Positions 1,861-17,469 of a stretch of 64,000 nt of DNA are shown here, one piece after another. Within the stretch, counting starts at the first letter, position 1, and each line of letters begins with the position of its first letter. Source of the DNA: an uncultured Gammaproteobacteria bacterium (GTDB lineage Bacteria > Pseudomonadota > Gammaproteobacteria > JABCZS01); assembly GCA_963848305.1 (NCBI GenBank), contig CAWKDC010000001.1, positions 256,001-320,000 on the forward strand, written 5' to 3'. Under the pieces are notes generated by a model that saw only the letters and a program-made list of their open reading frames with translations, searched no databases and had not been told where the DNA came from. The position numbers and the translations under genes were made by a program.

Positions 1861-1888
1861 TGTTCGCATAATGTATATTATGTTAATA
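1861..1888 (+). other. dif site (XerC arm TGTTCGCATAA, spacer TGTATA, XerD arm TTATGTTAATA); also attL of the element
   Basis: Matches E. coli dif GGTGCGCATAA-TGTATA-TTATGTTAAAT except at 2 XerC-arm positions and the last 2 XerD-arm positions. Confidence 0.9.
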
Positions 1889-1971
1889 CACGCACCAGGC
1901 ATGTCTATGTCAACCATGTAATCAATGTTGATTAAGTACTTGATCCTTCATAACCAATCCTGATACTCTAT

Positions 1972-3207
1972 GTGATACGCACACCATGTCATTTATGTAA
2001 TATTGGCTTACAAGGAGTTAAAGCGTCAATGGAATTGGTTAAGATCAGATACCCCAATAATAGGATCTCATGGTCTGTTTTAAGCAATGATATTACCGTG
2101 GATCAGCTCAGAAATTGGATTATACATTTAGAAGAAATCAATCAGTCACCCAATACCATTCAGGCCTATGCTCGGCATATGGTTCGATTTGGGAATTATT
2201 TAGAAGCAAATGCCAAAACATTCAAAAAGATCTGCATTTCAGACTATGATCAGTTCCTTCAATGGCTTCCCTATGCGCTTTCAAATCCAGAGTTTCCAGG
2301 CAATGTCGTTTCGTTAAATCATCAACCAAAACGGCTTTCACCAGCACTGAAGAATCAAGTCCATTTGGCTGTGAAATCATTCTACAGATATTTGTCTGGA
2401 CAGCCTAATTTCGATTTTGACAGCGCTGAAGAATCAACCAGTTATGACAGCCCAGAAAGGTATAAACCATTTCTAGAGCATATTAATGCTCGTAGAACGA
2501 CAAGAACCAAGGATCGGTACCTACATGGTGATCCCGGTAAAGCTCAGAGAAGCGTCAGCAAACGACTAACCCCTGAAAACGTTTTAACGTTGATTAAGGC
2601 CTGCCACTTGATTCGAGATGCTTTCCTCGTGACACTTCTTTATAACACTGGCATGCGCATTGGAGAAGCTTTGGGGCTTAGACATACAGATATTGATCTG
2701 AAAGATGGCGTTATCTGGGTCATACCTCGGGCTGACAACGAAAACGGAGCTCGCGTCAAAGGCATGAAGACCCGAGCGATTCCCGTCATGAAGTACATAG
2801 TGGACATGTATGAGGATTACATCACAAGCGATGAGTATTTGGGCGCATTTGAATCTGGCACACAGTACGTGTTCTGCAATGTTCAAAAGTCACAAATTGG
2901 AAAAGCATTGTCCAAAAGCTATGGTGACAATCTCAAGAATTACCTCAAAAAAAGAACTGGCATCGAATTTACTTGGCACATGTTTAGGCATACACATGCC
3001 AGCGAAGCAATTGCAGATGGCTATAGCCTGCTTCAAGTATCTGATCGGTTAGGACATGCAAGCCCTCAAACAACAGTCAGTTTCTACAAACATTTGTTCA
3101 GCCATGAAATCAGAAAATGTCATTTAACTGGAGCAAAAAAGCTTGAAGAACGTTTAAGAGAGTTTAGTGCGACGCATACCAGCGAACGAGGTTTAAAATG
3201 GCTTTAA
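1972..3207 (+). CDS. Tyrosine recombinase, Tn554 TnpA-like (likely start ATG 2029)
   Basis: N-terminal SAM-like SPNTIQAYARH. Catalytic motifs LYNTGMRIGEALGL, HMFRHTHA and LGHASPQTTVSFY. Confidence 0.9.
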   Translation: MIRTPCHLCNIGLQGVKASMELVKIRYPNNRISWSVLSNDITVDQLRNWIIHLEEINQSPNTIQAYARHMVRFGNYLEANAKTFKKICISDYDQFLQWLPYALSNPEFPGNVVSLNHQPKRLSPALKNQVHLAVKSFYRYLSGQPNFDFDSAEESTSYDSPERYKPFLEHINARRTTRTKDRYLHGDPGKAQRSVSKRLTPENVLTLIKACHLIRDAFLVTLLYNTGMRIGEALGLRHTDIDLKDGVIWVIPRADNENGARVKGMKTRAIPVMKYIVDMYEDYITSDEYLGAFESGTQYVFCNVQKSQIGKALSKSYGDNLKNYLKKRTGIEFTWHMFRHTHASEAIADGYSLLQVSDRLGHASPQTTVSFYKHLFSHEIRKCHLTGAKKLEERLREFSATHTSERGLKWL

Positions 3208-5321
3208 CACTTGCATATATGACAGATGATTTAAATGAACAATACGAGGCTCAATTATCGTCTGCAATTTCGGTTATATCTCCGCTGCTTCTTAGCAATG
3301 ATGTTTGGGATCAGGAATTTGCAAATTCTGTACCGAAATTTGTTAATAAGCACATCGGTGCAAAAAGTCCTATTTCTTTCGCATCACTCCCCTCCTCCTT
3401 GAAGCTGGAGCTCAAATTATACTGGGCGAAATTGCTTTCAGACGATCGATGCAATTCGATGAGTGCAATTGAGAGAAGAAGACAATCAATGAGATGGTTC
3501 AACTCTGATGGAGCAAATATACTTTCCGATTTTAATGTCAAGACTTTATCTGATATTCCTCACCCAGAATTTCCGATAAATTGCATTGTCACATCTCGCT
3601 CAATCAAGAAGCACAATGATAGATTGTTGGAGCTGTATTCATGTTTTGAAGGGAATGGTGATCGACCTCCGCAAAAAATTTGTGTCGTCGATGATGCTAC
3701 AGGACGTGTCAATCAAAAAGAATATTTATCCACAAGGGTCACCATCATTGGGGATTTTCACAAGCAAGCTATTATAAATAGGGAACAGCTGCAACCAATG
3801 AATGGCCGGAACATTATTTTTATTAACGACCTTTACTCTGAAGAAAATGTACGATTCAAAGATAAACAACGGCAAACTGATACATATTTAAATTTTTTTC
3901 TATTCCCTCCTTGGCTGCGAGATGCCGCCAAAACGCACCTGCTTCAAAAGATATCCTTTGGCGAATTGGCACCAGGATCATTGCTTGGTTATTTTTCTAG
4001 GTTATTAAGTTTCAGAGATTTCATGCATGAAAGATTTGATATTCCACGCCCAAAACTTGTCACTGTTACTTTGATTGAAGACAATTATGTTGCCTGGGGC
4101 AATGAGAAAGGATTGGCGGGAAAGAACTGGTTTACCGACACCTTAGCGATGCTATCCACAGCGGGACGTATGTGGCCAAATGAGTGGCCTTCCCTATCAG
4201 TCTCAAATCGAGCGGCTAGAAAGATCAAAAAAACACATTACAAACAGGGGCTAGGTCGCATCGGTCAAAATCAAGAAGGTGCTGGACGCTCATATTCCCA
4301 GCGCATTGTGGATGAGCTTAATAGATCAATAAGTTCAGCACCAGATCCAATTCATGATATTTTTAGCATCATCATGGGCACTGGCATGAGAGCTGAAGAT
4401 GGGCATGCCCTCCTCTTTGATTGCCTTAAAGATGATCCAAATGATAATGATTTTATGCTTTTAACTTTTTGGCAAAATAAAGTAAGAAAATGGAATACAA
4501 AACCTTTATTAAAAAAAGATAAAGGCCATGCATATTTAATTGATTTAATTGCAGCCAGGCGAAAAAAGAATATTCATAAATACGGGAGAGAAACAAAATA
4601 CCTTTTTCCGTCCTTCACGGGGACGCAGGAGAACTTTCTAACGCCCGGATGGACAGTGCTTGAAATCAAGAAACGATGCATTGCGGATGACATCCGTGAT
4701 GAGACTAATAAACCTTTGAGCTTTTCATGGCATCCACTTCGACATACCAAGGGCACATCATTAGCCAAGGAAGGTCATGACGTAATGAGCATCATGATGG
4801 AGCTTGGACATGCCAGCCCTGATATGGCCGCTGTGTATGTTAACAATAGACTCGAATTAAAAAAACAAGCCCTCATGGAAAAAGGCAGTGGCAAATTCTT
4901 TACCATCGAAGGCAAAGTCGATACAAAAATTATGGAACTGATGGTAAGAAAGGAGCAGCTCAGCGCTACTAGAGTATGCGGTGGTGCTTGCTCTATGCCC
5001 AGTCAGCTTGGCGATTGGTGCGAGCACGCGAATGCCTGTTATACCTGTAAGCATTATCGGGCTGACGGAAAAGATATTGAGTTTTTTAAGCATGAGAAGC
5101 TTGCCATTACTGATTTAATTGAACAGCAAAAAATCGAAAGCAATGAGTTAAATGATGCCGGCCACAAACGTATGGCTGAAATACTGCAAAGACGCATGGC
5201 AAAAAACATGGACATCAACGCTTCGCTTGGCAACATTATTCAGGCAATAGAGACAACGGATCGATATCAAGGCGATAAACCAATGGCGAAGAAAATGAGT
5301 CTGGAGCAACCACATGATTAA
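3198..5321 (+). CDS. Large tyrosine recombinase, Tn554 TnpB-like
   Basis: GTGMRAED, HPLRHTKG and LGHASPDMAAVY. C-terminal Cys cluster GACSMP...CEHANACYTC followed by a coiled coil. Overlaps tnpA. Confidence 0.85.
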   Translation: MALTLAYMTDDLNEQYEAQLSSAISVISPLLLSNDVWDQEFANSVPKFVNKHIGAKSPISFASLPSSLKLELKLYWAKLLSDDRCNSMSAIERRRQSMRWFNSDGANILSDFNVKTLSDIPHPEFPINCIVTSRSIKKHNDRLLELYSCFEGNGDRPPQKICVVDDATGRVNQKEYLSTRVTIIGDFHKQAIINREQLQPMNGRNIIFINDLYSEENVRFKDKQRQTDTYLNFFLFPPWLRDAAKTHLLQKISFGELAPGSLLGYFSRLLSFRDFMHERFDIPRPKLVTVTLIEDNYVAWGNEKGLAGKNWFTDTLAMLSTAGRMWPNEWPSLSVSNRAARKIKKTHYKQGLGRIGQNQEGAGRSYSQRIVDELNRSISSAPDPIHDIFSIIMGTGMRAEDGHALLFDCLKDDPNDNDFMLLTFWQNKVRKWNTKPLLKKDKGHAYLIDLIAARRKKNIHKYGRETKYLFPSFTGTQENFLTPGWTVLEIKKRCIADDIRDETNKPLSFSWHPLRHTKGTSLAKEGHDVMSIMMELGHASPDMAAVYVNNRLELKKQALMEKGSGKFFTIEGKVDTKIMELMVRKEQLSATRVCGGACSMPSQLGDWCEHANACYTCKHYRADGKDIEFFKHEKLAITDLIEQQKIESNELNDAGHKRMAEILQRRMAKNMDINASLGNIIQAIETTDRYQGDKPMAKKMSLEQPHD

Positions 5322-5745
5322 CAAAACTGATGGCTTAAAAAAGGCAAGAGACCTTAGAAGCAAAGAGAAAAGAGAGGCTGTTGAAAAAGCTATCAGCGAA
5401 CTATCGCAACGAAATGAGGCAGTAACATTTCAATCCGTGGCAGCTATGGCCTGTGTCAGCAGACAGTATCTTTACAATAACTTTAAGGACTCAATCTCTG
5501 TTGAGCGCAATTCCTCTAGGAGTGTTGCTGATGTGATTGATGGCATCACGGTACCAGCGAGAACGCCAGATGAGCACAAGCATGTTGAAGCCCTGCTCCG
5601 CAACAAAATTGAAAAGCTTGAGAAGGAAATGAGCGCGCTGAGGCAGGAAAACGCACGAATGAAGCAATCATTGGAAAAAGAAAGGGGTAAAGCCGAACAT
5701 TTTAGGCAAAATTGGCTTAATTCAAAATCAAAAGATGTATTGTAA
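5314..5745 (+). CDS. TnpC-like (DUF6262-type) HTH/coiled-coil accessory protein
   Basis: KREAVEKAISEL...VTFQSVAAMACVSRQYLYN plus a C-terminal coiled coil. Third gene of the overlapping trio. Confidence 0.8.
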   Translation: MINKTDGLKKARDLRSKEKREAVEKAISELSQRNEAVTFQSVAAMACVSRQYLYNNFKDSISVERNSSRSVADVIDGITVPARTPDEHKHVEALLRNKIEKLEKEMSALRQENARMKQSLEKERGKAEHFRQNWLNSKSKDVL

Positions 5746-5758
5746 AAGGAAAGGTTGA

Positions 5759-7465
5759 ATGGGCATTATTCATGATTCGATAAAAGCACTAGATGTAATT
5801 GATTCTCAACTGGAAGAATATGAGATCCTAAATGTATTATCCAAAATCGATAAACATGCACTTACCCCTCAGGAATTGAAGCATGGTGAATACGAGTGGA
5901 TTGCTTTCAACATGCAGGATGGATTTAATTGGTCGAAATATGCAGGAAAAACATGGGGGACTTACTTTGGTCCTGTATGGGTATTTCCTGATGGAACAGT
6001 TTGGCCTGATAAGTCAATGATTACAGAAGAAGCTGTTTGCTATTGGGCAGCTCGGTTGGATGAGTGTGCTCATCCTGTTCTTAAAGCAAGATATGCTGGG
6101 CTCGTTTGGGATTTTAAAAACATCCTCAAGGAAAAACAGAATCTTCGTGAACTCCCGAAGATTATTATTAATAACTGTTTAGTGATTTCAAAAAATCACC
6201 TCCACAAATATCCTCATGAGGAGCTTATAAAGTTAAAGTGGGCTCTTGAGACCGCACTCTCTGTAAAGGATGAAAATATTGCCAAAGATATACTACGTGA
6301 GATGTTCAATCGCAATGGCTTTGGCGGAAATATTTCAATTATCGAGTTCTTATTGAAGAATAAAAAGGCACCGTTAATTCCTGAGCAAAAAAATCAACTG
6401 ATAACCGAGCTAAGAAGTTACAGCGAATCTCGTTGCTTCTCGACTGCCATGCAGTCAGCGGTAATTCTTGCCAATTACCACAGAAGCAAAGATAACGAAA
6501 AAGAGGCCAAGCAATCGATTCTTAAGTATATCAATAATGTTCTTGAAAATTCAACTGTCGAGCAACCTTTAAGATGGAAATTTATTCTTGAGGAGGCATT
6601 AAGTTTGACAAGAAAATATGGCCTGGGAGATGACATTGTGAATCAAGTGGAATGTGAGCTGAGATTGATTTGCGATAACATTTGGAAAGACATGAAAGTA
6701 ATTAAGGCTGAGGCTATTGTCGATTTCACTGAATTCGACCTTTTTATCGACTCTGTTCTTTCAAACAAAAAGAGCTCGATTCTTGATGTGCTAGCAATTA
6801 ATTTTATACCGAAAGCTCAAGATGGAAAGATGCTTTTTGATCAACTAAAAAATGACAATCCAATTTCCTATTCTATAAACAGAACCTTGTTTGGGCCTAA
6901 TAATATAACCTCGGCCGATCTGGATGAAAATGATAACGACCTTATTCATACCATAAAACAGCTGATCATAATAAATGGGGTTTTTTTGAAAAGATTTATA
7001 GAAAAGTGTCGCTTTTGTAAAAGAATAACCATGAGAACCGTCAAAAAACATTTTTCTAAATCACATTTATTCAAAGAAACTCATAATCGGCAGTTGTTTC
7101 ATGGTCTTAAGTCATATTTTAAAAAAGATTATATTACGTCAATATACATTCTTGTCCCTCAGCTCGAAAATGCAATAAGAGTGCTTTTAAATGAAAGTGG
7201 TTCGGCAGGTTTAGAACCAAATAAATCTGGCGGATTCGATGAGCGCGCCCTGGGAGCCTTGTTTAGCATGGATGGTTTAAAGTCAATTTTAGGCGAAAAC
7301 CTCATCACATATTTCAAGACGATTTATACACATAATGCAGGGATTTACTTAAGAAATTTAATATCTCACGGTAACGCATGTGATGCTGTATTTACTGCAG
7401 AACACGCAGATTTGGTTTTTCACTCACTCATAATACTGGCTGCGCTACCCTCCCTGAAAACATAA
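5759..7465 (+). CDS. DUF4209-type HEPN-domain protein (putative RNase/defence cargo)
   Basis: C-terminal SIYILVPQLENAIR...GIYLRNLISHG (Rx4H). N-terminal YW..R....HPVLKARYAGLVW motif seen in this family. Confidence 0.7.
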   Translation: MGIIHDSIKALDVIDSQLEEYEILNVLSKIDKHALTPQELKHGEYEWIAFNMQDGFNWSKYAGKTWGTYFGPVWVFPDGTVWPDKSMITEEAVCYWAARLDECAHPVLKARYAGLVWDFKNILKEKQNLRELPKIIINNCLVISKNHLHKYPHEELIKLKWALETALSVKDENIAKDILREMFNRNGFGGNISIIEFLLKNKKAPLIPEQKNQLITELRSYSESRCFSTAMQSAVILANYHRSKDNEKEAKQSILKYINNVLENSTVEQPLRWKFILEEALSLTRKYGLGDDIVNQVECELRLICDNIWKDMKVIKAEAIVDFTEFDLFIDSVLSNKKSSILDVLAINFIPKAQDGKMLFDQLKNDNPISYSINRTLFGPNNITSADLDENDNDLIHTIKQLIIINGVFLKRFIEKCRFCKRITMRTVKKHFSKSHLFKETHNRQLFHGLKSYFKKDYITSIYILVPQLENAIRVLLNESGSAGLEPNKSGGFDERALGALFSMDGLKSILGENLITYFKTIYTHNAGIYLRNLISHGNACDAVFTAEHADLVFHSLIILAALPSLKT

Positions 7466-7648: not shown

Positions 7649-7849
7649 ATGAGATTATACGATAATTATGATGCATTTAAAGCGAACCCATATGATGAAG
7701 ATGAGAAAAACAGAGTGATCAAGCACTGTGCCCATTATATGGAAAGGAATGCGACTATTCCATATGAGCTGCAGTTATGTTTTGATCTTTTGAAAGAAAG
7801 AGAACCTGAATATGTGAATTCATACTTATCACTAATGACATTAGCATAA
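7649..7849 (+). CDS. Small hypothetical protein
   Basis: 66-aa ORF with a GGAG RBS, ending just before the first right end. Confidence 0.45.
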   Translation: MRLYDNYDAFKANPYDEDEKNRVIKHCAHYMERNATIPYELQLCFDLLKEREPEYVNSYLSLMTLA

Positions 7850-7873
7850 CATAAGTCATTGATTAAAGGGATG

Positions 7874-7905
7874 TTTACACGATTTGGTGTGCATACATGT
7901 TAAAT
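7874..7905 (+). repeat. Right end/attR copy 1 (32 bp), preceded by IHF-like TAAGTCATTGATT
   Basis: tttacacgatttggtgtgcatacatgttaaat, identical to 8615-8646. Confidence 0.9.
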
Positions 7906-7920
7906 GGAGATAAAAAGCAG

Positions 7921-8538
7921 CTAGAGCCTCGGTGTTATCGCTTTATACCCACGCCAATCAAGTAAGTGAATTTGGTTTTTTTGCATCTCGTACATTTTAT
8001 ACACTGCGATTGCTTTCGGATCTTCTAAAATAATAACATTCTTGATGGCGCCATCTCCAGAGCGTAGGTTTTTTTCAGTTGATGGCGCATTGGTCACATC
8101 CCCAATTACAATTGTGTCAAAGTTAGCGCGATTTTTCACTTGTGCACAGCACACTTCGCAAGGTGTCAGTGTTGTGAACATTGTGGCTTGGCGAAAATCT
8201 ACAGGTCCCTGTCCTTTAAGCTTTGCGACTCTTCCCGCATCTCTCAATGCGCTTGTTTCACCATGCATTGTTGAGTCATTTTCTTGAATAAGCGTATTGT
8301 GTCCCTTACCGATAATTTGTCGCCCTTCACCAATGATCACTGCGCCAATCGGGCATCCTCCTTCTTTGAAAGATTTAATCGCAAGAAAGGTTGCTATTCG
8401 CATGAAGTCTTTATTTTGGAGTTTATTGAAAAATGCAGGCTCCACAACACGTGGCAGAAATTCCGTAGGGAGCAATGCAATGAGATTAAGCACGGCATCA
8501 TCAACGGGAGTGTATCGAGTTATATAAAGATGTTCCAT
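7921..8538 (-). CDS. Zn-dependent nucleoside/cytosine deaminase (CDA superfamily)
   Basis: EGGCPIGAVI, GHN, MHGETSAL (HxE) and TLTPCEVC (PCxxC). Confidence 0.85.
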   Translation of the reverse strand: MEHLYITRYTPVDDAVLNLIALLPTEFLPRVVEPAFFNKLQNKDFMRIATFLAIKSFKEGGCPIGAVIIGEGRQIIGKGHNTLIQENDSTMHGETSALRDAGRVAKLKGQGPVDFRQATMFTTLTPCEVCCAQVKNRANFDTIVIGDVTNAPSTEKNLRSGDGAIKNVIILEDPKAIAVYKMYEMQKNQIHLLDWRGYKAITPRL

Positions 8539-8614
8539 TCGTCTATTCTACCACCTTACTTGCCTCATCTCTTTGTTTACAGAAATAATGCATAACCTAT
8601 TGATTCAATCGTCA

Positions 8615-8646
8615 TTTACACGATTTGGTGTGCATACATGTTAAAT
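8615..8646 (+). repeat. Right end/attR copy 2 (32 bp), preceded by IHF-like TAACCTATTGATT
   Basis: Identical to 7874-7905. Confidence 0.9.
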
Positions 8647-8702: not shown

Positions 8703-9194
8703 CTACTGGTTCAAATGACGGGATACCACATCTTTCGTAGCCGTATAATCAGCCTCTCTTGCACGTACTCGTTGTTCATACAACGACCATACGGTTAGAT
8801 AGAAGTTATTTGTAGGAACAACTACGTCAGCAGGGATTTTTCCACCATGCTGCAAAAGTATATTAAGCACCCCAGCGCGACCATATTCAATGGCTATTTC
8901 AACAGGAGTTTTTAAGCCGTGCATATCATCTTTCACGTCGAGACTAGCACCATTAGTGCATAAGTCTTCAACTAATTCTTTATCATCTAAAAGCACAGCA
9001 TAGGTAATTGCAAATTCCGCACAATATCTTTGACCCATATCAGTATTTGCGACATCCAGGTAATGATCCAAAGGCCAGTCTAAATCAATCCCCTCAAGTA
9101 ATGACCAATATTTTATCAGTGGCTCGAGTTTAGCGATGGATTCCTGAGTGAGATCTCTGTATGTTTTTACCATGTTGGAGCGTGGGTTTCTCAT
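8703..9194 (-). CDS. Ankyrin-repeat protein
   Basis: LVEDLCTNGASLDVKD...KTPVEIAIEYGRAGVLNILLQHGG. Confidence 0.75.
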   Translation of the reverse strand: MRNPRSNMVKTYRDLTQESIAKLEPLIKYWSLLEGIDLDWPLDHYLDVANTDMGQRYCAEFAITYAVLLDDKELVEDLCTNGASLDVKDDMHGLKTPVEIAIEYGRAGVLNILLQHGGKIPADVVVPTNNFYLTVWSLYEQRVRAREADYTATKDVVSRHLNQ

Positions 9195-9487: not shown

Positions 9488-10219
9488 ATGACAGTTATAT
9501 TCAAAATTTTTGACAAAACCTTTCAAGCTTCATCGGGTGTATACGGAACTGCTCGTTTTAAAGACTCCGATGAATATAAAGAAGTTAAAAAAAATCACTT
9601 ATCTATCATGAATGACATGGCTGCTGACAGAATGCTAATCACGAACCACGTGTTTGGTCTTCATGTTGTCGACGCAGACCAAGTAGCGGACTTCGCAGAT
9701 GAGCCTGATGCAGATGCTGCTGTCACTACGCTTCCAGGCGTACTATTGACCATTCAAACCGCAGATTGTGTCCCTGTGATGCTAGTAAGTGATGATGACA
9801 AAGTAATCGGTGCTGTTCATTGCTCTTGGCACACTACCAAAAATGGTATTCTAGCCAATGTCGTTTCTTTAATGATAAAAAAAGGCGCACGAAGTATTCG
9901 CGCTATCATTGGGCCTGCTATCCATCAGAAGTCATATGAAGTCGATCAGGCGTTTTACGAATCCATCATCTCATCAGCGCCTAGAGCATCCTACCTCTTC
10001 ATTCCATCAAAAAGACAAGGCCATTATATGTTCGACTTACCAGGGTTCTGCAAGCTGAAATTAAGTCAATTGAATATTTCAGAGGTGCTTGATCAGTGTG
10101 AAGACACTTATCAATACACAGATAAATATTACAGTTATCGTCGCGATGCACATCAAGGAATTTTAGGTGAAAGAAAAAATATATTATCGACTATCATGAT
10201 AATGGAAGCAGGAGCCTAG
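9488..10219 (+). CDS. YfiH/PgeF (LACC1/FAMIN-like) purine nucleoside enzyme
   Basis: ADAAVT, TADCVPV, AVHCSW, IGPAI..SYEV and YYSYRR motifs. Confidence 0.85.
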   Translation: MTVIFKIFDKTFQASSGVYGTARFKDSDEYKEVKKNHLSIMNDMAADRMLITNHVFGLHVVDADQVADFADEPDADAAVTTLPGVLLTIQTADCVPVMLVSDDDKVIGAVHCSWHTTKNGILANVVSLMIKKGARSIRAIIGPAIHQKSYEVDQAFYESIISSAPRASYLFIPSKRQGHYMFDLPGFCKLKLSQLNISEVLDQCEDTYQYTDKYYSYRRDAHQGILGERKNILSTIMIMEAGA

Positions 10220-10223
10220 TTTC

Positions 10224-10583
10224 ATGAAATACACACGAATTTATGCAGGAGATGACAAGCATTCTCATTTCGAAGATAGCGATTTTGAGATGTTTGATGC
10301 CATTATCGGTAAAATTAGTGCAACGATTCCAACAAATTGTTTATATTTTGGGGAGATAACCGATACTGATGAAATCAGCTGGCACAACCCACCCGTGCCA
10401 CAATTTGTGATCATGCTGGAAGGTTCCATGGAAATAGAAATTGGCGATGGGACTAAAAAAATATTCAACACGGGTGATATTGTGTTTATTGAGGATACCA
10501 CTGGGCAAGGACATGTGACGCGAGCAGCAAGCTCAGGGAAGCGCAGGTATCTGGTTATTCCAGTCACAAATCAAAGCGAATAA
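10224..10583 (+). CDS. Cupin-domain protein
   Basis: WHNPPVPQFVIMLEG...GDIVFIEDTTGQGH. Confidence 0.8.
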   Translation: MKYTRIYAGDDKHSHFEDSDFEMFDAIIGKISATIPTNCLYFGEITDTDEISWHNPPVPQFVIMLEGSMEIEIGDGTKKIFNTGDIVFIEDTTGQGHVTRAASSGKRRYLVIPVTNQSE

Positions 10584-11291: not shown

Positions 11292-11957
11292 ATGTTAAAA
11301 CAGCAATTCGAGGTACCAGGCATGAACCCACTACTCCACCCAAACACAGAAGGCTCCATTCGCGTCTTTCATATTACAAAGACACCGATTGATAAAATCC
11401 TTCGAGAAGGTCTTAAAACCGTTGCTCAGTTAATGAATGAGGGGGAAATGGAACGCAGAAACCCCTCTAGTTATGGTCTATTGCGAGATCAATATACTCA
11501 CATTTATTTTCGACCTGTTGAAAATGCTGATAACTATATTACAGCGATTCGCGGGTGTACATGGATCGCCATAGATGTGCATCCAGATAGCATTGTATAT
11601 GATTCCGAATTGAGATTTGAGCGAAACCTGTCCTATTACGCATCACAAATTACTTTGCGTGACTATGTAGCGCCAGGATCGGCAACGGGGATTACGCGTG
11701 GAGGTGAGATACTGATAACGCAACCAGTACTATCCCCTGAGATGTTTAGCGATAACAGCCGGGATTATTGGCTTAGAAAAGAAAATGAGGCAAAAAAGGT
11801 GCAGGTTCCCGATCCTCAGGTGTCTTCCGGTGCAGGAATTGTGAATAATAGCTATACATCGGCCCCGTTTATCCCGCGCTCATCAGAATTGCTCTCAAAT
11901 GTAGCCGTTAGACAGAAACAGCAGTCTCAAAATAAACATTGCTGTACTTTTTTATAG
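11292..11957 (+). CDS. Hypothetical protein, possible ADP-ribosyltransferase fold with C-terminal CaaX-like motif
   Basis: VFHIT...ILREGLK, HIYF and GEILI. Ends CCTFL. Confidence 0.5.
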   Translation: MLKQQFEVPGMNPLLHPNTEGSIRVFHITKTPIDKILREGLKTVAQLMNEGEMERRNPSSYGLLRDQYTHIYFRPVENADNYITAIRGCTWIAIDVHPDSIVYDSELRFERNLSYYASQITLRDYVAPGSATGITRGGEILITQPVLSPEMFSDNSRDYWLRKENEAKKVQVPDPQVSSGAGIVNNSYTSAPFIPRSSELLSNVAVRQKQQSQNKHCCTFL

Positions 11958-12143
11958 TATCTAGCTGTGTACCGCCGGTAACATTCGGTACATTTGAGCC
12001 GTAATCAGCTGTAAACCCAAAAACAGTGGCGCTTTCATCCTTTCGTACCCCTACACTTAAAACCCACTCTTAATCGGCCTTGGCTCTGATAATTCCGAAA
12101 TACTAGGCTGTACAGCACCACGCATTAACGATATACTCACCTC

Positions 12144-13172
12144 ATGATCAGAAGTTTATACACATCAGTCAACAGAATACTCAATCCCTTCACCCTAAGA
12201 GACCTCCTCCTCCAACAGGCCGAATACTTTTCCATGTTCTTAAGCAGGGCCGTCGGTCTCAACTGTACTTTGAAGCCAATCAGCCTCACTCCATTCTCCG
12301 CACCCAGGCACTTCGTTCTGGAGTCAGATGGCGAGCCCATGTCTGTTGAGCACAAACACAAAATCTTAGAATGGGGGCTTGAACACCATCCGAGCTGGTT
12401 TTGCCGATGGTGGAGAGATGAAGCATTTGAAGGAGATATGATCGTCTTAAATAAGGACGGTGATTTTTGTATTAACTCGCACGATCTGCTTAGATTGATT
12501 GTCGCATTAGACCCTTTCCTGGCCAATTCACTTAAAAATGTCGAAACCATGTTGAATCAGCGGTACAGCAAGACTCTGTCCCTTAAAATTCATCCCACCG
12601 ATTGGTCCATGGATCTTTATATCAATGACGAGACCTTAACTTCTGCTGAATTGCATGAATTTAGCGAAACATTACAAAACGATGTGTATAGAAAAACAGG
12701 CCGTCATATTAGCCTTTCATCCGGCTGGTCATTTACACGCGCTCCTGTGAGGGTCGTGCCATATCACGCTAAAATAGTCTCTGCAGATTCGTCTAGTCAA
12801 GACATGAGTGGTTCTACTACAATCGAAGAGAGGTTCAAACGAAAATTCCTCTGTCAATCTGAAGCAATTAAGTGTTCAGGCATACGGCTTTCTGTCAATT
12901 TCGATCTTCCTCCACTTTTTGACTTTTTAGACCTCAAATGCCCGAGCTATTTCCCATCAAGTCAAACACATATTCCGCCTGTTGAGCTCAGCATTGATCC
13001 CCACCCGGTTTTATTGTTGACGAAATGGCGGTTTGTGGGCATTAATATCAATGGAAATTGGTTTGGCGCGTCACAACAAGAGAAGGATTTCAGTGAAAAA
13101 TCCTGGGAGGAGGTCGCAAAACGAATGCTAACCCAACCAGAGGATAAAAGAAAAGCGCTGACTTATTTTTGA
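12144..13172 (+). CDS. Hypothetical protein
   Basis: 342-aa ORF with no recognised motif. Confidence 0.55.
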   Translation: MIRSLYTSVNRILNPFTLRDLLLQQAEYFSMFLSRAVGLNCTLKPISLTPFSAPRHFVLESDGEPMSVEHKHKILEWGLEHHPSWFCRWWRDEAFEGDMIVLNKDGDFCINSHDLLRLIVALDPFLANSLKNVETMLNQRYSKTLSLKIHPTDWSMDLYINDETLTSAELHEFSETLQNDVYRKTGRHISLSSGWSFTRAPVRVVPYHAKIVSADSSSQDMSGSTTIEERFKRKFLCQSEAIKCSGIRLSVNFDLPPLFDFLDLKCPSYFPSSQTHIPPVELSIDPHPVLLLTKWRFVGININGNWFGASQQEKDFSEKSWEEVAKRMLTQPEDKRKALTYF

Positions 13173-13265
13173 GATATCTTTCCACGTCTTTACATGGCGA
13201 GCACGCCGGACAAACATGTCCCGGACTCGCATCCGGGATTGCTCGGAGTACATCGCGTATTTGCC

Positions 13266-13421
13266 TTTAGACCCTCCCTTTTTAGTACCAACTTAAATTA
13301 GAGGTCTCCGGAGTGGTCAAACGGTATTGAACGGGTGTCATGCAGTTTAAAGCCTGATGTGGCCGTTCTTCGTTGTACTCTTTAATCCATGCTTCTGTTA
13401 TCTCTTTTCACTTTCAGACTA
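13266..13421 (-). mobile_element. IS3-family remnant (transposase 3' end plus degenerate IRR)
   Basis: Minus strand encodes EITEAWIKEYNEERPHQALNCMTPVQY...SWY*, then TGGTACTAAAAAGGGAGGGTCTAAA. Confidence 0.75.
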
Positions 13422-13715
13422 TTCTTCGCAATAATTCTCACCGCCGATCAATGGGATTAATCTACAAAGTACTTCGTCAATAATATGTTCATCTGCATGA
13501 ATGCTTGAAGGAGTCATATTTTTGAGCAGTTCTTTTTCTGAAAAATGAAGTCTTTTTTTAGGCCAAGGCTTAACCTTTTTCACTGTAAACACATCTTCTG
13601 TGACATCCACGATAACTTTCGTTCCTTCAGTAAAATGCGGGATATCTCGCATTATGCCGGATACTCTGAGGGCTAATCCATTGCCCCATTTTTGTATACT
13701 TGCTTCTGTCTTCAC
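13419..13715 (-). CDS. mazE: AbrB/MazE antitoxin, apparently fused to the C-terminal tail of a deleted MazF
   Basis: IQKWGNGLALRV AbrB motif. The tail IIDEVLCRLIPLIG resembles a MazF C-terminal helix. Confidence 0.75.
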   Translation of the reverse strand: MKTEASIQKWGNGLALRVSGIMRDIPHFTEGTKVIVDVTEDVFTVKKVKPWPKKRLHFSEKELLKNMTPSSIHADEHIIDEVLCRLIPLIGGENYCEE

Positions 13716-13810
13716 GATAAGTTACCTCTAAAATAATCTTAACCTGAAAAGCACATACTATGTATCAACATCTGTCAAGCACTTTGTTCAATCAGCTAAA
13801 ATGACACGAT

Positions 13811-13835
13811 CCCGAGCCCATTATATGGGCTCGGG
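13811..13835 (-). terminator. Hairpin downstream of the oxidoreductase gene
   Basis: cccgagcccat-tat-atgggctcggg, a perfect 11-bp stem. No clear U-tract. Confidence 0.5.
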
Positions 13836-13844
13836 TATCCAAGC

Positions 13845-15458
13845 TTACTGCGGCTTTCTCTTCGAGCTGGCATATGCCAATACAGGATGATCTCCAGAGG
13901 TATCCACGCTTTGGCTCGCTTGCACGGCAGCGGGCGCAAAGGAAACGCCACCAGAGCCTAACCCTGTGGTCACGCGAGCGTTGGCAACTGGAACACCGTT
14001 TTGATAAACACGCCCTAGTGTGGGGAAGCCATCATATGCAACCGCACGAGAGCCAACGCCGCGTATCGCCTTACCTGAGCTGACCAGTTGCTGCAAGTCT
14101 GCTTCCGTCAATTCTTGACCATGAGTATTTCGTCCTAAGGCAGCTGAAATCAATTCAGGCAATACATTGTTGATCATATTCAATTGCAACAAATTTCGAT
14201 TTTTCGCAAAATCTTGTTCAGCTGTAGGTACTTGATCACCATAAAATGCTTTTGTTCCTGCTACGGCGATAGAGAGTTCAGGCCCCCGTTTTCCGGCTTG
14301 CCAGGCTAATACAACTCCTTGCTGGTGAACTTCCATGTAGTGATTAAAGGACTTATATTTTTCCAACATGTCATCTGAAACACGAAAGGATAACCTGAGC
14401 GCAGCGCCAGCAAATATGGCATAAGCAGGTTCATTAAAACCAAATTTCCTCAATGTGCCAACGGATTCGCCAGGACAAAATACATATTCATGATTGTCAT
14501 ATGTATGATGATGAGATTCCTTTTTGAAATTTGAAAAGAATAGGCCGTTTACGCGACTTCCAGACCCATTTTCAGTGGTTGAAACGTTACTGACCTCGCG
14601 GTTAAATTTAATGCGGAAATTGTCTTTGTCCTGATGTGATACATTGGATGTGTACTGCCCCATCACTTTACTCAAATAAGTGGAGAATTTAGGCAGAAAA
14701 GTTGCAACGTGCAAACAGCCGCCTGGACGCCATAGGGCTACCGCATCACTTTTCCAAACAAGCTCGCCATTCAATTCAATCGAATTTGTTTTGCAAAAAT
14801 CTACCAACGAAATATCCCGTTTCATAACCTCAGCAGGAGACAATATTTCACAATGATGATATCCCAGTTTGTCGTAATCGTTCATCATATCTTTGGCTCT
14901 TTGTGCTGCATCGGGAATACGTTGGATTAAATCTATCCGATACCCTTCTTGCAATACTTTTTTATCTGTTTCTCGGCATGGATTGTAATTGGAGTCTCGC
15001 ATGATTTTTTTCAGCTCATCATCTCCATTCTGATAAATATCTTCCCATAAATCCATGCTCAGTTTGCCAAGGGTCAGCAGAGCTTCGGTGCGTGCCAGAT
15101 GGCCTGCCTCGTCTTTACTGTATTCTTCAACAGCCCTAATGAATTCTTTTGCTGCTGCGGATTCATTAATTCCTTCTACATCATTGACACGAACGCCCCC
15201 AGGCACGCTGAATAAATCTTTGAGCTTTTCAACCAGCAAGGTGCCTCTCGGAACCACTGAGAGAATCTCATCTGGTGTTAAACTGGGGGCAATTTTTGCG
15301 GCAGTTGTTTGGTCAAACCTTTCATTTTTTTCATAAATGGTCGCACGTAATCGTTCGTTTTTTTTCTGCGCCTTGAGGTAAGCAAAATAAACCTCCATAA
15401 ATCCGATGATACCGCCACCGATGATAGTGACTTTATTTTGTGCATAGTCATTAGGCAT
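13845..15458 (-). CDS. FAD-dependent oxidoreductase (DAO-like)
   Basis: KVTIIGGGIIG Rossmann motif and C-terminal GSRAVAYDGFPTLG...TGLGSGGVSFAP. GGAGG RBS precedes ATG 15458. Confidence 0.8.
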   Translation of the reverse strand: MPNDYAQNKVTIIGGGIIGFMEVYFAYLKAQKKNERLRATIYEKNERFDQTTAAKIAPSLTPDEILSVVPRGTLLVEKLKDLFSVPGGVRVNDVEGINESAAAKEFIRAVEEYSKDEAGHLARTEALLTLGKLSMDLWEDIYQNGDDELKKIMRDSNYNPCRETDKKVLQEGYRIDLIQRIPDAAQRAKDMMNDYDKLGYHHCEILSPAEVMKRDISLVDFCKTNSIELNGELVWKSDAVALWRPGGCLHVATFLPKFSTYLSKVMGQYTSNVSHQDKDNFRIKFNREVSNVSTTENGSGSRVNGLFFSNFKKESHHHTYDNHEYVFCPGESVGTLRKFGFNEPAYAIFAGAALRLSFRVSDDMLEKYKSFNHYMEVHQQGVVLAWQAGKRGPELSIAVAGTKAFYGDQVPTAEQDFAKNRNLLQLNMINNVLPELISAALGRNTHGQELTEADLQQLVSSGKAIRGVGSRAVAYDGFPTLGRVYQNGVPVANARVTTGLGSGGVSFAPAAVQASQSVDTSGDHPVLAYASSKRKPQ

Positions 15459-15588
15459 GATAATTTCCTCCAAAAATTTATTTATCGTATCATGAAAAAA
15501 ATGAGATGCGCAATATTTATTTTCACAAAAAGTTTTTGTTTTTCAACTGACAACTGAAAGTGTGATAAAGGTTGAAGTACACTGAGCG

Positions 15589-17244
15589 TCATTTCATCGC
15601 CGCCGGTGATCTGATGACCTGTAAAGTGGCTGGTGATTCAACAGGGCTCAGCGTTGGCGTATCGGCTCTATTGCTTGCACGCTCACTGTGATTATCTTTA
15701 TCCTGAGATCCACAACTCGAAGATGAAGATGAAGCAGTGCTGTAATTGTTATGACGGTAACTCGAAGTACGTGCGCTAGAACGTCTGCTTGATTCGCTTT
15801 CGTTAATGCGAGACGAAGATGGCTCCCCCCAAGTATTAGGCGTGAATAATAATGACACTTCAGGGCTAGAACATTTATATTGTTCAGCATATTTATAGAA
15901 AAACATTTTATCACTAGATTTTTCTCTGATCGCATTCAATAAATATTTGTCATGTTCTAGCAACTCTCGAAATGAAACATTACCCGAACATACTGCGTCG
16001 AAGTATCGCTGATATTTTTCTTCACCATCTGATGCCTGCTGCTCAAAAATAGCTTTGATGTGATCACTGATATTTCCCCACAATAGCATATTAAGCTCTT
16101 GATAAATGTTAAGGAGCGTTTCTCTGATAGAGATGATGTCTTTCAATAATTGCTCGAAATCATTTGAGTTGTAACTCGTCATCAGATCTTCGTCGAATGT
16201 TTTAATAAATTTCAGTCGTGGTGAACCGTTGATATTAATTTCATCCACACTAAAGCTATCAATGAAGAACAATCTGAATTGATTCAAAACATCTAAGAAT
16301 TTATCCATTTTCCCTTTCATTTGATGTAAGGGTTCTGGCGATGTCAAAAAGTCAGCGCTCAGTGCCAAAATTTCTAGCGCAAATACCATTGCATCAGGCG
16401 TATCAGATCTGTCGGATTCTGCACTGAAAATGGCAATCCAATTCAGCATGTCTTGGTGTTTTTTAGCTAATTTTTTCGCATCATTGAGGGTAATATCAAA
16501 TGAAAGTTTTTCATCCCTGTCTTTGGAAAGACGGTAATGTGTTCTTTTGATATTTCTGATTAAACACACATAGCCTTCCGGCGAAGTCCATTTTTCCAAC
16601 AAGAGTAGACGCATGCAATGGTACCCTTTGGCAATTGGATTTTTTTCATGTTCATATTTTATAAAACGTTTATTGTAGTTATCAATAATAAAGGCTATGA
16701 TGGTCTTCAATAAGGATGGTGACAACGGTGATCGAGCCGAAGCACCAATATGGGATGTATAATCTTGCTCATAGAGTTCATTGGCATGAATCATTTCTTG
16801 GGTGAATCGAGATGGCCCCCAAGGCTTTTTATCTTCATATCCCGTTCGAACCACGTGGGTCGACATGCTGAACATGCGCCTACTCTCCCCTGTTTCATGA
16901 TCGGGTCGTCCTGTTCTGGGCGTTCTCGGTGTTAAGGGTTGGCTGTATAAGATATCTCTGTCCATCAGATTCGCAAGTGCGTTGGTGAGAGCGGATACTC
17001 GGGCTGCCTCTTCACTATCGTGTCGTCGGGTGATAAAACGCCACAAACGTGCCCAGCGGGAAAGCCTTCGAACAGGTAATGGAGACTTTAGGATTCGGGT
17101 AATGGCTTCATGCAACTCTTCTCTGCTTAAGTCATGTTGATTCGCGTTGCTTATCAACTCAACCAATGGTTGATAGCAATGTATTAAAGGGTACTGATGA
17201 ACGATAGTCAATAATTCGTTTTTATAGTCTTCTGTTATATTCAT
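15589..17244 (-). CDS. Hypothetical helical protein with Ser/Arg-rich disordered C-terminus (effector-like)
   Basis: About 550-aa ORF with a low-complexity tail. Confidence 0.65.
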   Translation of the reverse strand: MNITEDYKNELLTIVHQYPLIHCYQPLVELISNANQHDLSREELHEAITRILKSPLPVRRLSRWARLWRFITRRHDSEEAARVSALTNALANLMDRDILYSQPLTPRTPRTGRPDHETGESRRMFSMSTHVVRTGYEDKKPWGPSRFTQEMIHANELYEQDYTSHIGASARSPLSPSLLKTIIAFIIDNYNKRFIKYEHEKNPIAKGYHCMRLLLLEKWTSPEGYVCLIRNIKRTHYRLSKDRDEKLSFDITLNDAKKLAKKHQDMLNWIAIFSAESDRSDTPDAMVFALEILALSADFLTSPEPLHQMKGKMDKFLDVLNQFRLFFIDSFSVDEININGSPRLKFIKTFDEDLMTSYNSNDFEQLLKDIISIRETLLNIYQELNMLLWGNISDHIKAIFEQQASDGEEKYQRYFDAVCSGNVSFRELLEHDKYLLNAIREKSSDKMFFYKYAEQYKCSSPEVSLLFTPNTWGEPSSSRINESESSRRSSARTSSYRHNNYSTASSSSSSCGSQDKDNHSERASNRADTPTLSPVESPATLQVIRSPAAMK

Positions 17245-17469
17245 TGAGGGCTCTCCCAAGTCTTAATGGTAATGCAAATAATTTCTTAATAAATAGTAGT
17301 AGGTCATTCTGAAATTAGCAAGTTTCCTAGGATTTGATATTTAACATTCTGAATTAAAATAAATTGGGCATACGGATTGTTTTTAATGATAATACACTAT
17401 ATCATTCATAAGAACTCAAGGGGTAGCACCCCGCACGGACGAATGTTATCAAACGGATAGGAATTTCTT

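Follow-up and report, generated by a model that had tools for sequence, protein, structure and literature searches.

How does a single gene come to stand between two identical transposon ends, next to the site at which chromosome dimers are resolved? A stretch of 64,000 nucleotides from an uncultured gammaproteobacterium of the lineage JABCZS01 raises this question (assembly GCA_963848305.1, contig CAWKDC010000001.1, positions 256,001 to 320,000; hereafter the window, whose positions are used throughout). It contains a transposon of about 6.0 kb with the genes tnpA, tnpB and tnpC, inserted in the chromosomal dif site, and directly beyond it a small unit with one deaminase gene. The order in the genome is the left part of dif; the element, made of its left end (LE), tnpABC, cargo and a first right end (RE1); AT, the deaminase unit and a second right end (RE2); and finally AT and the chromosome. 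The left part of dif and LE together form attL. We propose, with a probability of roughly 0.6 for the explanation as a whole, that both repeats represent the ~70-nt right-end site (RE, or attR) of a family of Tn554-like transposons, and that the deaminase unit is a non-autonomous, RE-delimited cassette using recombination of the TnpAB type at dif.

Two right ends around a deaminase gene

The sequence TTTACACGATTTGGTGTGCATACATGTTAAAT forms an exact direct repeat of 32 bp at positions 7874-7905 and 8615-8646, both on the + strand. No further match with up to three mismatches is found in the window (0.00 expected from 100 dinucleotide-preserving shuffles), and no other copy of the repeat in the 1,892,649-bp genome of four contigs. 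Extended leftwards, the similarity covers 56 nt (84% identity; spacing 741), and a profile built from 13 RE copies matches about 68 nt at each site (7838-7905 and 8579-8646); beyond the RE, the flanks of the two copies are unrelated.

Both copies contain TAA-N4-TTGATT, whose reverse complements are AATCAATGACTTA and AATCAATAGGTTA. These sites of the integration host factor (IHF) type lie at an equal offset from the end in RE1 and RE2, without a mismatch to WATCAANNNNTTR, which we take to be the IHF consensus and used to score the predicted RE sites. An earlier note on this DNA, made from its letters alone, had described the repeat, an IHF-type motif YAA-N4-TTGATT upstream of each copy and the divergence of the remaining flank; it had also placed a deaminase gene alone between the copies, in reverse orientation, in a unit that begins with AT, completing an arm of dif, rather than with a left end. 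Each of these observations holds.

The RE alignment comprises 13 copies from six genomes and one metagenome contig and is gapless over about 70 nt. From left to right, the site consists of TTGACAC, a spacer, YAAY-N4-TTGATT, TTTACAYGATTTGGTGYGCATAC, the core ATGTTAA and AT. It includes GGTGYGCATAC before the 7-bp core, and the 32-bp repeat is the core-proximal part of the conserved RE. When two plasmid copies are included, an IHF-consensus site is present at 41-42 from the RE end with at most one mismatch in 14 of 15 REs, nine of them having none. A consensus fold of the chromosomal and metagenomic copies (9 of 13) gives no conserved pair and an energy of 0; the RE is therefore unlike the attC site of integrons, and an attC-like hairpin is rejected. 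Between 7500 and 9400, promoter and terminator sites are no more numerous than in shuffled sequence. The GC contents of element, unit and flank, all 0.40-0.43, give no separation.

The unit closed by RE2 measures 741 bp, and a deaminase gene of the cytosine/nucleoside type is its sole gene. The product of 205 aa, from the only sensibly sized open reading frame (ORF) between the copies, matches Pfam dCMP_cyt_deam_1 (E = 2.7e-17); its TadA-like match is far under the model cut-off. Its 625 homologues come from many phyla and are named by their sources as nucleoside, cytosine or creatinine deaminases, with an identity of 54-69% outside its own cluster among the 120 homologues listed. In each RE copy of the window, the sequence beyond ATGTTAA and AT is unrelated, and RE1 has no left-end sequence after it. 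Because it has a complete right end, without a left end or a recombinase, the unit would be a non-autonomous cassette. The first gene past RE2 (8703-9194) encodes a 163-aa ankyrin-repeat protein, whose faint match to the Dot/Icm effector model AnkY, far under the cut-off, hints at a host-associated lifestyle.

A chance repeat or an assembly artefact, the latter considered in the earlier note, has nothing in its favour except that this is a metagenome-assembled genome (MAG). It is next to impossible here, with no chance match expected and 13 homologous RE copies aligned. In contigs of four metagenome runs of low depth, 47 of 49 pieces are at least 99% identical to the window, and contigs of run X1, which may be the source sample of the genome, independently confirm the junctions of attL (1848-2096) and RE1 (7752-8114). 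We exclude the artefact because the flanks of the copies differ and an X1 contig spans RE1.

Table 1 Features of the element, the deaminase unit and the dif site in the window.
Feature	Positions	Strand	Description
Left part of chromosomal dif	1861..1886	+	XerC-type arm TGTTCGCATAA, 1861-1871; central TGTATA, 1872-1877; XerD-type arm to core ATGTTAA, 1880-1886
Left end (LE)	1887..1960	+	TACACGCACCAGGCATGTCTATGTCAA, then AATCAATG; imperfect inverted repeat of RE
tnpA, shorter tyrosine recombinase	2029..3207	+	392 aa from ATG 2029; open frame from 1972 (411 aa); Pfam Phage_integrase, E 1.2e-31
tnpB, long tyrosine recombinase	3198..5321	+	707 aa; catalytic domain in C-terminal half; Pfam Phage_integrase, residues 370-550, E 3.8e-11
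tnpC	5314..5745	+	143 aa; Pfam DUF6262, E 1.6e-10
Cargo gene, DUF4209 protein	5759..7465	+	568 aa; Pfam DUF4209; PADLOC candidate defence family PDC-S39, E 1e-25
Small cargo ORF	7649..7849	+	66 aa; no family match
RE1, right end of TnpABC element	7834..7905	+	Core ATGTTAA, 7897-7903, then AT, 7904-7905
Deaminase unit body	7906..8574	-	Deaminase coding sequence 7921-8538, minus strand, read from the RE2 side toward dif
RE2, right end of deaminase unit	8575..8646	+	Core 8638-8644, AT 8645-8646, then chromosomal flank

An element within the XerD arm of dif

Positions 1861-1888 read TGTTCGCATAA-TGTATA-TTATGTTAA/TA (a slash marks the boundary, here and below), that is, a dif whose last two bases are replaced. 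We assigned its arms from what we take to be the consensus of E. coli dif. The AT that completes the XerD arm stands after RE1, the element sitting inside this arm. We identify the site as the chromosomal dif because it is the sole dif-like site in the genome, because the contig reaches its maximum of cumulative GC skew at 260 kb (about position 4000 of the window), and because XerD (359.5 bits, over the cut-off) and a XerC-like protein (310 bits, just under the cut-off) are encoded elsewhere in the genome. A 21-mer of this dif recurs in the intact dif of two related MAGs, G002 from the same genus and G004 from the same family.

The element extends over about 6.0 kb, from TACACGCACC at 1887 to the core at the end of RE1. 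Its LE is an imperfect inverted copy of the RE, with TAC.CRCACC followed by TGTCAA (in the window, AATCAATG); among the elements described below, the LE consensus is TACGRACACC..TGTCTATGTCAA. In a circle, the junction RE-core-LE would resemble a classical core site of tyrosine recombinases, with inverted GGTG..TA arms and an overlap of 7 bp. The three genes tnpA, tnpB and tnpC are contiguous and overlapping, and no gene lies between the two recombinases. The R..HxxR..Y motifs appear in translation as GMR, HMFRH and SFY in TnpA, and as GMR, HPLRH and AVY in TnpB. All Xer-like NCBIfam matches of TnpA are under their cut-offs. As for TnpC, a DUF6262 family protein carries this label in a table of PMC11947258, and the portion of its text consulted ties tnpC to Tn6188.

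On the XerC side, fragments of an IS-type transposase (an HTH_23/HTH_28 N-terminus and a second ORF, 1299-1856) abut dif; a contig of run X3 has a different sequence left of 1867, and another strain appears to lack this fragment. A stretch of about 50 nt at 482-532 recurs at 81-90% identity in the dif regions of G002 and G004 (L010, 2435 and 3232; L011, 13268, 14517 and 16092) and is probably a small dispersed repeat of the lineage. The first ~150 kb of the same contig, outside the window, have a GC content of about 0.58, against about 0.46 elsewhere, and a flat GC skew; this part may represent an island of foreign origin or a chimeric join of the MAG.

Seven elements at one position

A large protein collection holds 86 relatives of TnpB; the full-length ones are 40-59% identical and several are from Halomonas. 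In the class sample, 4 of 401 genomes matched, the window genome among them, and no strong relative occurs outside it, the other three matching at ~30% over a part of the protein. Among 342 Halomonadaceae genomes, four (L030-L033) have a TnpB of 58-59% identity. Their elements, 8.6 to 16.3 kb in size, start with GCATAAT(R)TATATTATGTTAA/TACGRACACC and end with ...TGGTGTGCATAC-ATGTTAA/AT, and each has a single RE, with no internal one. The 3.9-kb part from LE to tnpABC is 93-96% identical across the four species and the cargo differs, which suggests recent horizontal spread with modular cargo. The genes nearest the RE in L030 and L033 read leftward. These two elements share the RE-proximal block and not the tnpC-proximal one; by eye, the ORF lists of the four show large ATPase-like, methylase-like and type I restriction-like cargo genes.

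Seventeen plasmid records matched TnpB, of which we examined Halioglobus pRR3-57 (L041) and Novosphingobium pNL1 (L042). Both have the same dif-like arrangement. The element of pRR3-57 measures 5.6 kb (11730-17362); that of pNL1, to whose protein TnpB is 43% identical, measures 4.1 kb, has little beyond tnpABC and ends in a diverged right end, TGGTGTTGATATATGTTAA/AT. A VapC/AbrB pair is found directly on the XerC side of the dif-like site of pNL1 (9916-10547).

All seven elements (window, four Halomonadaceae genomes, two plasmids) are inserted at ...TTATGTTAA/TAC of the dif-like site in one orientation and end with ...GGTGTGCATAC-ATGTTAA/AT, with nothing duplicated beyond the common 7-bp core. 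Since all seven junctions lie at one dif position, the crossover is placed inside the XerD arm. Xer recombination, for its part, exchanges strands at the borders of the central region. The left core of pRR3-57 is ATGTTAC and its right core ATGTTAA, the two cores being identical in the other six elements. This single informative case fits a core that the element brought along from its earlier site, a behaviour of the Tn554 type: a 'brought-in' core is described for Tn554-type elements and for SEs (strand-biased circularizing integrative elements) in the parts consulted of PMC12486829 and PMC10214605.

Units with a right end alone

In a DNA search of 60 relatives, the RE region alone matched outside the window genome, save two 25-nt matches at E ~1e-3, and several of the RE matches are in G002. 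On contig C61 of this MAG, an intact dif (...TTATGTTAAAT) is followed by a MazF/antitoxin unit with an RE, a PIN/MazE-type unit with an RE and a third unit (PIN/AbrB), which shows no recognisable RE before the end of the contig. Contig C15, whose end overlaps that of C61 by 64 exact nt, has a unit with an unknown 212-aa ORF and an RE, then a DinB/103-aa ORF unit and an RE, then a GIY-YIG gene. The total for G002 is at least four REs, two on each contig, and its unit genes are of the MazEF, VapBC, PIN/AbrB and DinB kinds. The earlier note had named a single right end in all relatives as an observation that would speak against its reading; G002, with its four REs, shows otherwise.

In G004, an intact dif is followed by a YefM/YoeB unit with its RE, then by a 321-aa ORF and the homologous GIY-YIG gene. 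In Halomonas organivorans CECT 5995, an isolate, an intact dif is followed by a 5-kb block and an RE with its IHF-type site, to the right of which the chromosome is syntenic with other Halomonas. The genes of this 5-kb unit run in both directions; by eye from the ORF list, they include old-yellow-enzyme, hydrolase, acetoacetate decarboxylase, DJ-1 and MerR-like genes. Nothing in the unit resembles the cargo of the four Halomonadaceae elements, so it is not traceable to one of them.

A scan of one genome for each of ~185,000 species with an exact RE pattern, too strict for the REs of the four Halomonadaceae elements, found only G002, G004 and H. organivorans CECT 5995. The RE pattern occurs in 2 of the 401 genomes of the class sample (the window genome and G002) and in 6 of the 342 Halomonadaceae genomes (the four that have TnpB, together with H. 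organivorans and G436), with no hit for the reversed control in either set. The RE tracks TnpB, all four TnpB-positive genomes of this family being among the six. The site of G436 (L040, ~11880-11948) is weak and RE-like (E = 1.2e-5), with no dif within 10 kb; by eye, it stands between an anthranilate-synthase-like gene and a defence cluster that looks to be of the CBASS type. Complete E. coli genomes and viral contigs gave no RE match, and plasmids only the Halioglobus copy and three weak matches (E ~2). Two metagenome contigs carry the same RE in one copy each, and neither reaches a dif. In the family of the window genome, dif could be located in 3 of 12 genomes.

Searches of G001, G002, G004, H. 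organivorans and G436 gave neither a TnpB nor a DUF6262 gene, the MAGs being 95-99% complete; arrays of units thus stand in genomes in which tnpB and tnpC were searched for and not found. Every unit starts directly after the ATGTTAA/AT of dif or of the preceding RE. The small ones consist of one gene or operon with little spare sequence (in unit 2 of G002, the stop codon touches the boundary), and their genes read from the RE toward dif in seven of seven. They contain MazF/antitoxin, PIN/MazE-type (twice), YoeB/YefM, DinB, an unknown ORF and the deaminase. All four internal junctions between an RE and the next unit, one in the window and three in G002, read ATGTTAA/AT and show no left-end remnant.

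These junctions bear on the possibility that the deaminase unit is a relic of tandem insertions. An older element with the deaminase as cargo near its right end would have received a second element into its attL; its LE and tnpABC would then have been deleted, leaving RE2 as a fossil without present function. Full elements do carry cargo between tnpC and RE, with the leftward reading of the RE-nearest genes in L030 and L033, yet no unit retains any fragment of LE or tnp, and every unit is a single operon that leaves hardly any sequence to spare. A tandem insertion is plausible in itself, each insertion recreating a dif-like attL. It would, however, put TA and the old left end after the new RE, where the window has AT and unrelated sequence. 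Random deletion would give AT in about 1/16 of cases at each of the four junctions, all of which have it. The single RE in each of the four Halomonadaceae elements agrees with the relic, double ends not being the rule, whereas RE2 retains the full ~70-nt architecture including the IHF site. Altogether, we consider the relic unlikely.

The earlier note had offered this relic beside a cassette, bounded by attR, that TnpAB moves. The relic is the less supported of the two, as precise ATGTTAA/AT junctions are not what random deletion leaves. The anatomy given in the note holds, and the other genomes favour the cassette over the relic; that TnpAB acts on RE2 and that the unit moves at all, as a circle, carried along or dropped off, are hypotheses, as are the enzyme that would act on the units and every recombination step below.

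It is somewhat less likely still that the two neighbours met by coincidence. In that case, only homologous recombination between relatives, involving the entire dif region, would spread the units, and the element of the window would have landed beside one, TnpAB never acting on RE2. The genomes with arrays do belong to one family, and no excision or circle product has been demonstrated. Also, the identity of RE1 and RE2 at 32 of 32 positions may reflect conservation of this part of the site only; the G002 copies L009a and L009b each differ from the window by 1 nt within these 32. Such a spread leaves unexplained why the units have precise core junctions and are bounded by a transposon end. The same holds for the RE-only unit in Halomonas, reached only outside the kin sets of the window genome, and its body is unlike the cargo of the four Halomonadaceae elements.

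Alternatively, the units could be modules of the host Xer system, inserted by XerC and XerD like integrative mobile elements exploiting Xer (IMEX) or like pdif modules, with the TnpABC element merely sharing or mimicking their site. This we hold to be improbable, slightly more so than coincidence. All units stand at dif, in genomes in which tnpB and tnpC were not found, and the host of the window has XerD and a XerC-like gene. The RE itself has some likeness to a Xer site: its end ACATGTTAAAT agrees with the host XerD arm at 9 of 11 positions, and its GGTGYGCATA resembles the XerC arm of E. coli in the consensus that we assume. However, the two parts that resemble the XerC and XerD arms touch or overlap and leave no central region of 6 bp between them. 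An exchange at the borders would leave the AC of the RE, not TT, at the start of the regenerated XerD arm, whereas G002, G004 and H. organivorans have TTATGTTAAAT. The seven TnpABC elements have their crossover within the XerD arm, and their ~70-nt end site is also the one in which the units end. Canonical Xer exchange would thus be expected to give neither a crossover within ATGTTAA nor a regenerated dif that keeps its own TT.

We favour the RE-delimited cassette because the units share the end and the junction of the full elements, which neither Xer exchange nor random deletion fits.

Possible movement of the units

In the mechanism that we propose for these cassettes, the transposon family would use its own recombinase pair, TnpA and TnpB, with TnpC, and insert at the 7-bp core ATGTTAA inside the XerD arm of dif. 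The deaminase unit would already have been beside an intact dif, as in the relatives, when the 6.0-kb element landed in that dif; alternatively, element and unit may have arrived together as a composite. TnpAB would then pair attL, or an intact dif, with either RE. Recombination of attL with RE1 would move the element alone and leave dif, unit and RE2 in place; with RE2, the unit would travel with the element. Between RE1 and RE2, it would release a circle of 741 bp able to re-enter dif. Each insertion would regenerate ATGTTAA/AT, hence an intact dif, and repeated events would stack units on its XerD side, the newest next to dif. The simplest route would use complete sites only: the element would leave with the neighbouring unit (attL and distal RE) or drop it (attL and proximal RE).

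Several points weigh against this explanation. The released circle would have one specific arm, the RE, beside the core; since no left-end-like sequence follows any RE/AT junction, its stand-alone integration would need half-site recombination. tnpABC is missing from G002, G004 and H. organivorans, where the enzyme must then have acted earlier or in trans. Of the four genomes with RE-only units, three are MAGs, and arrays with more than one RE occur only in the window genome and G002, both of one genus. The origin of the RE on any unit is unexplained: a degraded mazE-mazF remnant in the window (13419-13791, 5 kb from dif, most of mazF deleted) is 85-90% identical in nucleotides to unit 1 of G002 from the stop codon to the promoter region, and it has neither an RE nor a unit boundary. 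No joint that skips the element or the unit occurs in the contigs of the four low-depth metagenome runs. One X3 contig of 597 nt (depth 2.8) joins 8614 back to 7874 within 32 shared letters, the word length of Logan being 31, and no other X3 sequence covers the two alternative exits of this joint. It is ambiguous, representing a circle or a tandem copy or, equally well, a mis-join of the graph across the 32-bp repeat.

Recombination with one arm can be linked, as a speculation, to the strand-biased exchange reported for SEs in the part of PMC10214605 consulted. More tentatively than the cassette itself, and with the odds somewhat against it, we suggest that dif may be the docking site of a second, integron-like system of gene capture. 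RE-only cassettes would be excised as circles and re-inserted at the XerD arm by Tn554-type TnpA, TnpB and TnpC, in cis or in trans. Each site would offer one specific arm, possibly for the exchange of a single strand pair that replication resolves. Ordered arrays at the terminus, mostly of toxin-antitoxin and small accessory genes, would outlast the transposon.

If the explanation is true, a Tn554-like family in Proteobacteria targets dif with its own recombinases and not with borrowed Xer proteins. Its cargo could be deposited at the chromosome terminus, or collected there, in the form of one-ended cassettes, a parallel to integrons with unrelated enzymes and duplex sites. The terminus would be a depot of small accessory genes, as suggested by the cargo observed to date, which comprises toxin-antitoxin pairs and a deaminase beside a candidate defence gene and genes that, by eye in ORF lists, are restriction-modification-like. 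It would also provide a simple genetic system for how the two-recombinase machine of Tn554 and SEs uses its sites. The XerD arm of E. coli dif presumably has the same sequence as that of the window, which would allow the system to be reconstructed in a laboratory strain.

Comparison with known systems

The Tn554 family (Tn554, Tn6188 and Tn552-II, among others) has its three genes in the same order, tnpA for the shorter of two tyrosine recombinases, tnpB for the long one and tnpC for a small DUF6262/TnpC protein; its transposition involves a circular intermediate and needs TnpA, TnpB and TnpC. It also has the same site- and orientation-specific insertion at a core of 6-7 bp, without visible target duplication, and a right core that may differ from the left one, as in pRR3-57 alone of the seven elements. 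The elements described here differ in their proteobacterial hosts, in a target that is the XerD arm of dif and not a gene, in ends that are imperfect inverted repeats with an IHF-type site, and in right-end-only units that stand alone beside the target. Internal att copies around a cargo block are described for Tn552-II in the part of PMC12486829 consulted. Our assignment as Tn554-like is indirect, made through the gene trio and the pNL1 relative. The pNL1/pNL2 copy counts as Tn554-like in the list of Van Houdt et al. (2012); 'dif' as a whole word is absent from their paper (PMC3414803).

SEs and GInts have four core genes, intA-tfp-intB-srap or ginA-D, with tfp or ginC among them; here, there are three overlapping genes and no fourth. 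The descriptions consulted for SEs and GInts include neither a dif target nor one-ended units.

Like the units, IMEX (CTXphi, TLCphi, the gonococcal genetic island GGI) integrate at dif, stack in arrays and keep a working dif on one side. They use the host XerCD with exchange at the central region, whereas here the recombinases are the element's own and the crossover is inside the XerD arm. We do not class the units with IMEX: the RE lacks two arms set apart by a spacer, the crossover inferred from the seven junctions falls within the XerD arm, and the regenerated dif keeps its own TT.

Integron cassettes and clusters of attC sites lacking integron integrases (CALINs) resemble the units in being compact, with one gene or operon, one site at one end and one polarity, stacked beside a primary site; toxin-antitoxin genes are likewise frequent and arrays without a recombinase gene likewise occur. 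In contrast to integrons, the RE has no conserved fold, the recombinase is of another family, the genes read toward the primary site, and this primary site is dif. TnpA is not an integrase of the IntI type, as it reaches 48.7 bits with the integron-integrase model, which has a cut-off of 265.

The pdif modules of Acinetobacter have full 28-bp XerC/XerD sites in alternating orientation and are mostly found on plasmids, whereas here the bounds consist of a transposon end in direct repeat. They too are small accessory modules with dif-like bounds and often toxin-antitoxin pairs, according to the parts consulted of PMC6449649 and PMC12907356.

A literature search with subscription journals outside its scope turned up no paper in which dif is a topic together with a Tn554-like term. 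The window and its relatives combine features of a Tn554-type transposon, of a dif-integrating element and of an integron-like array.

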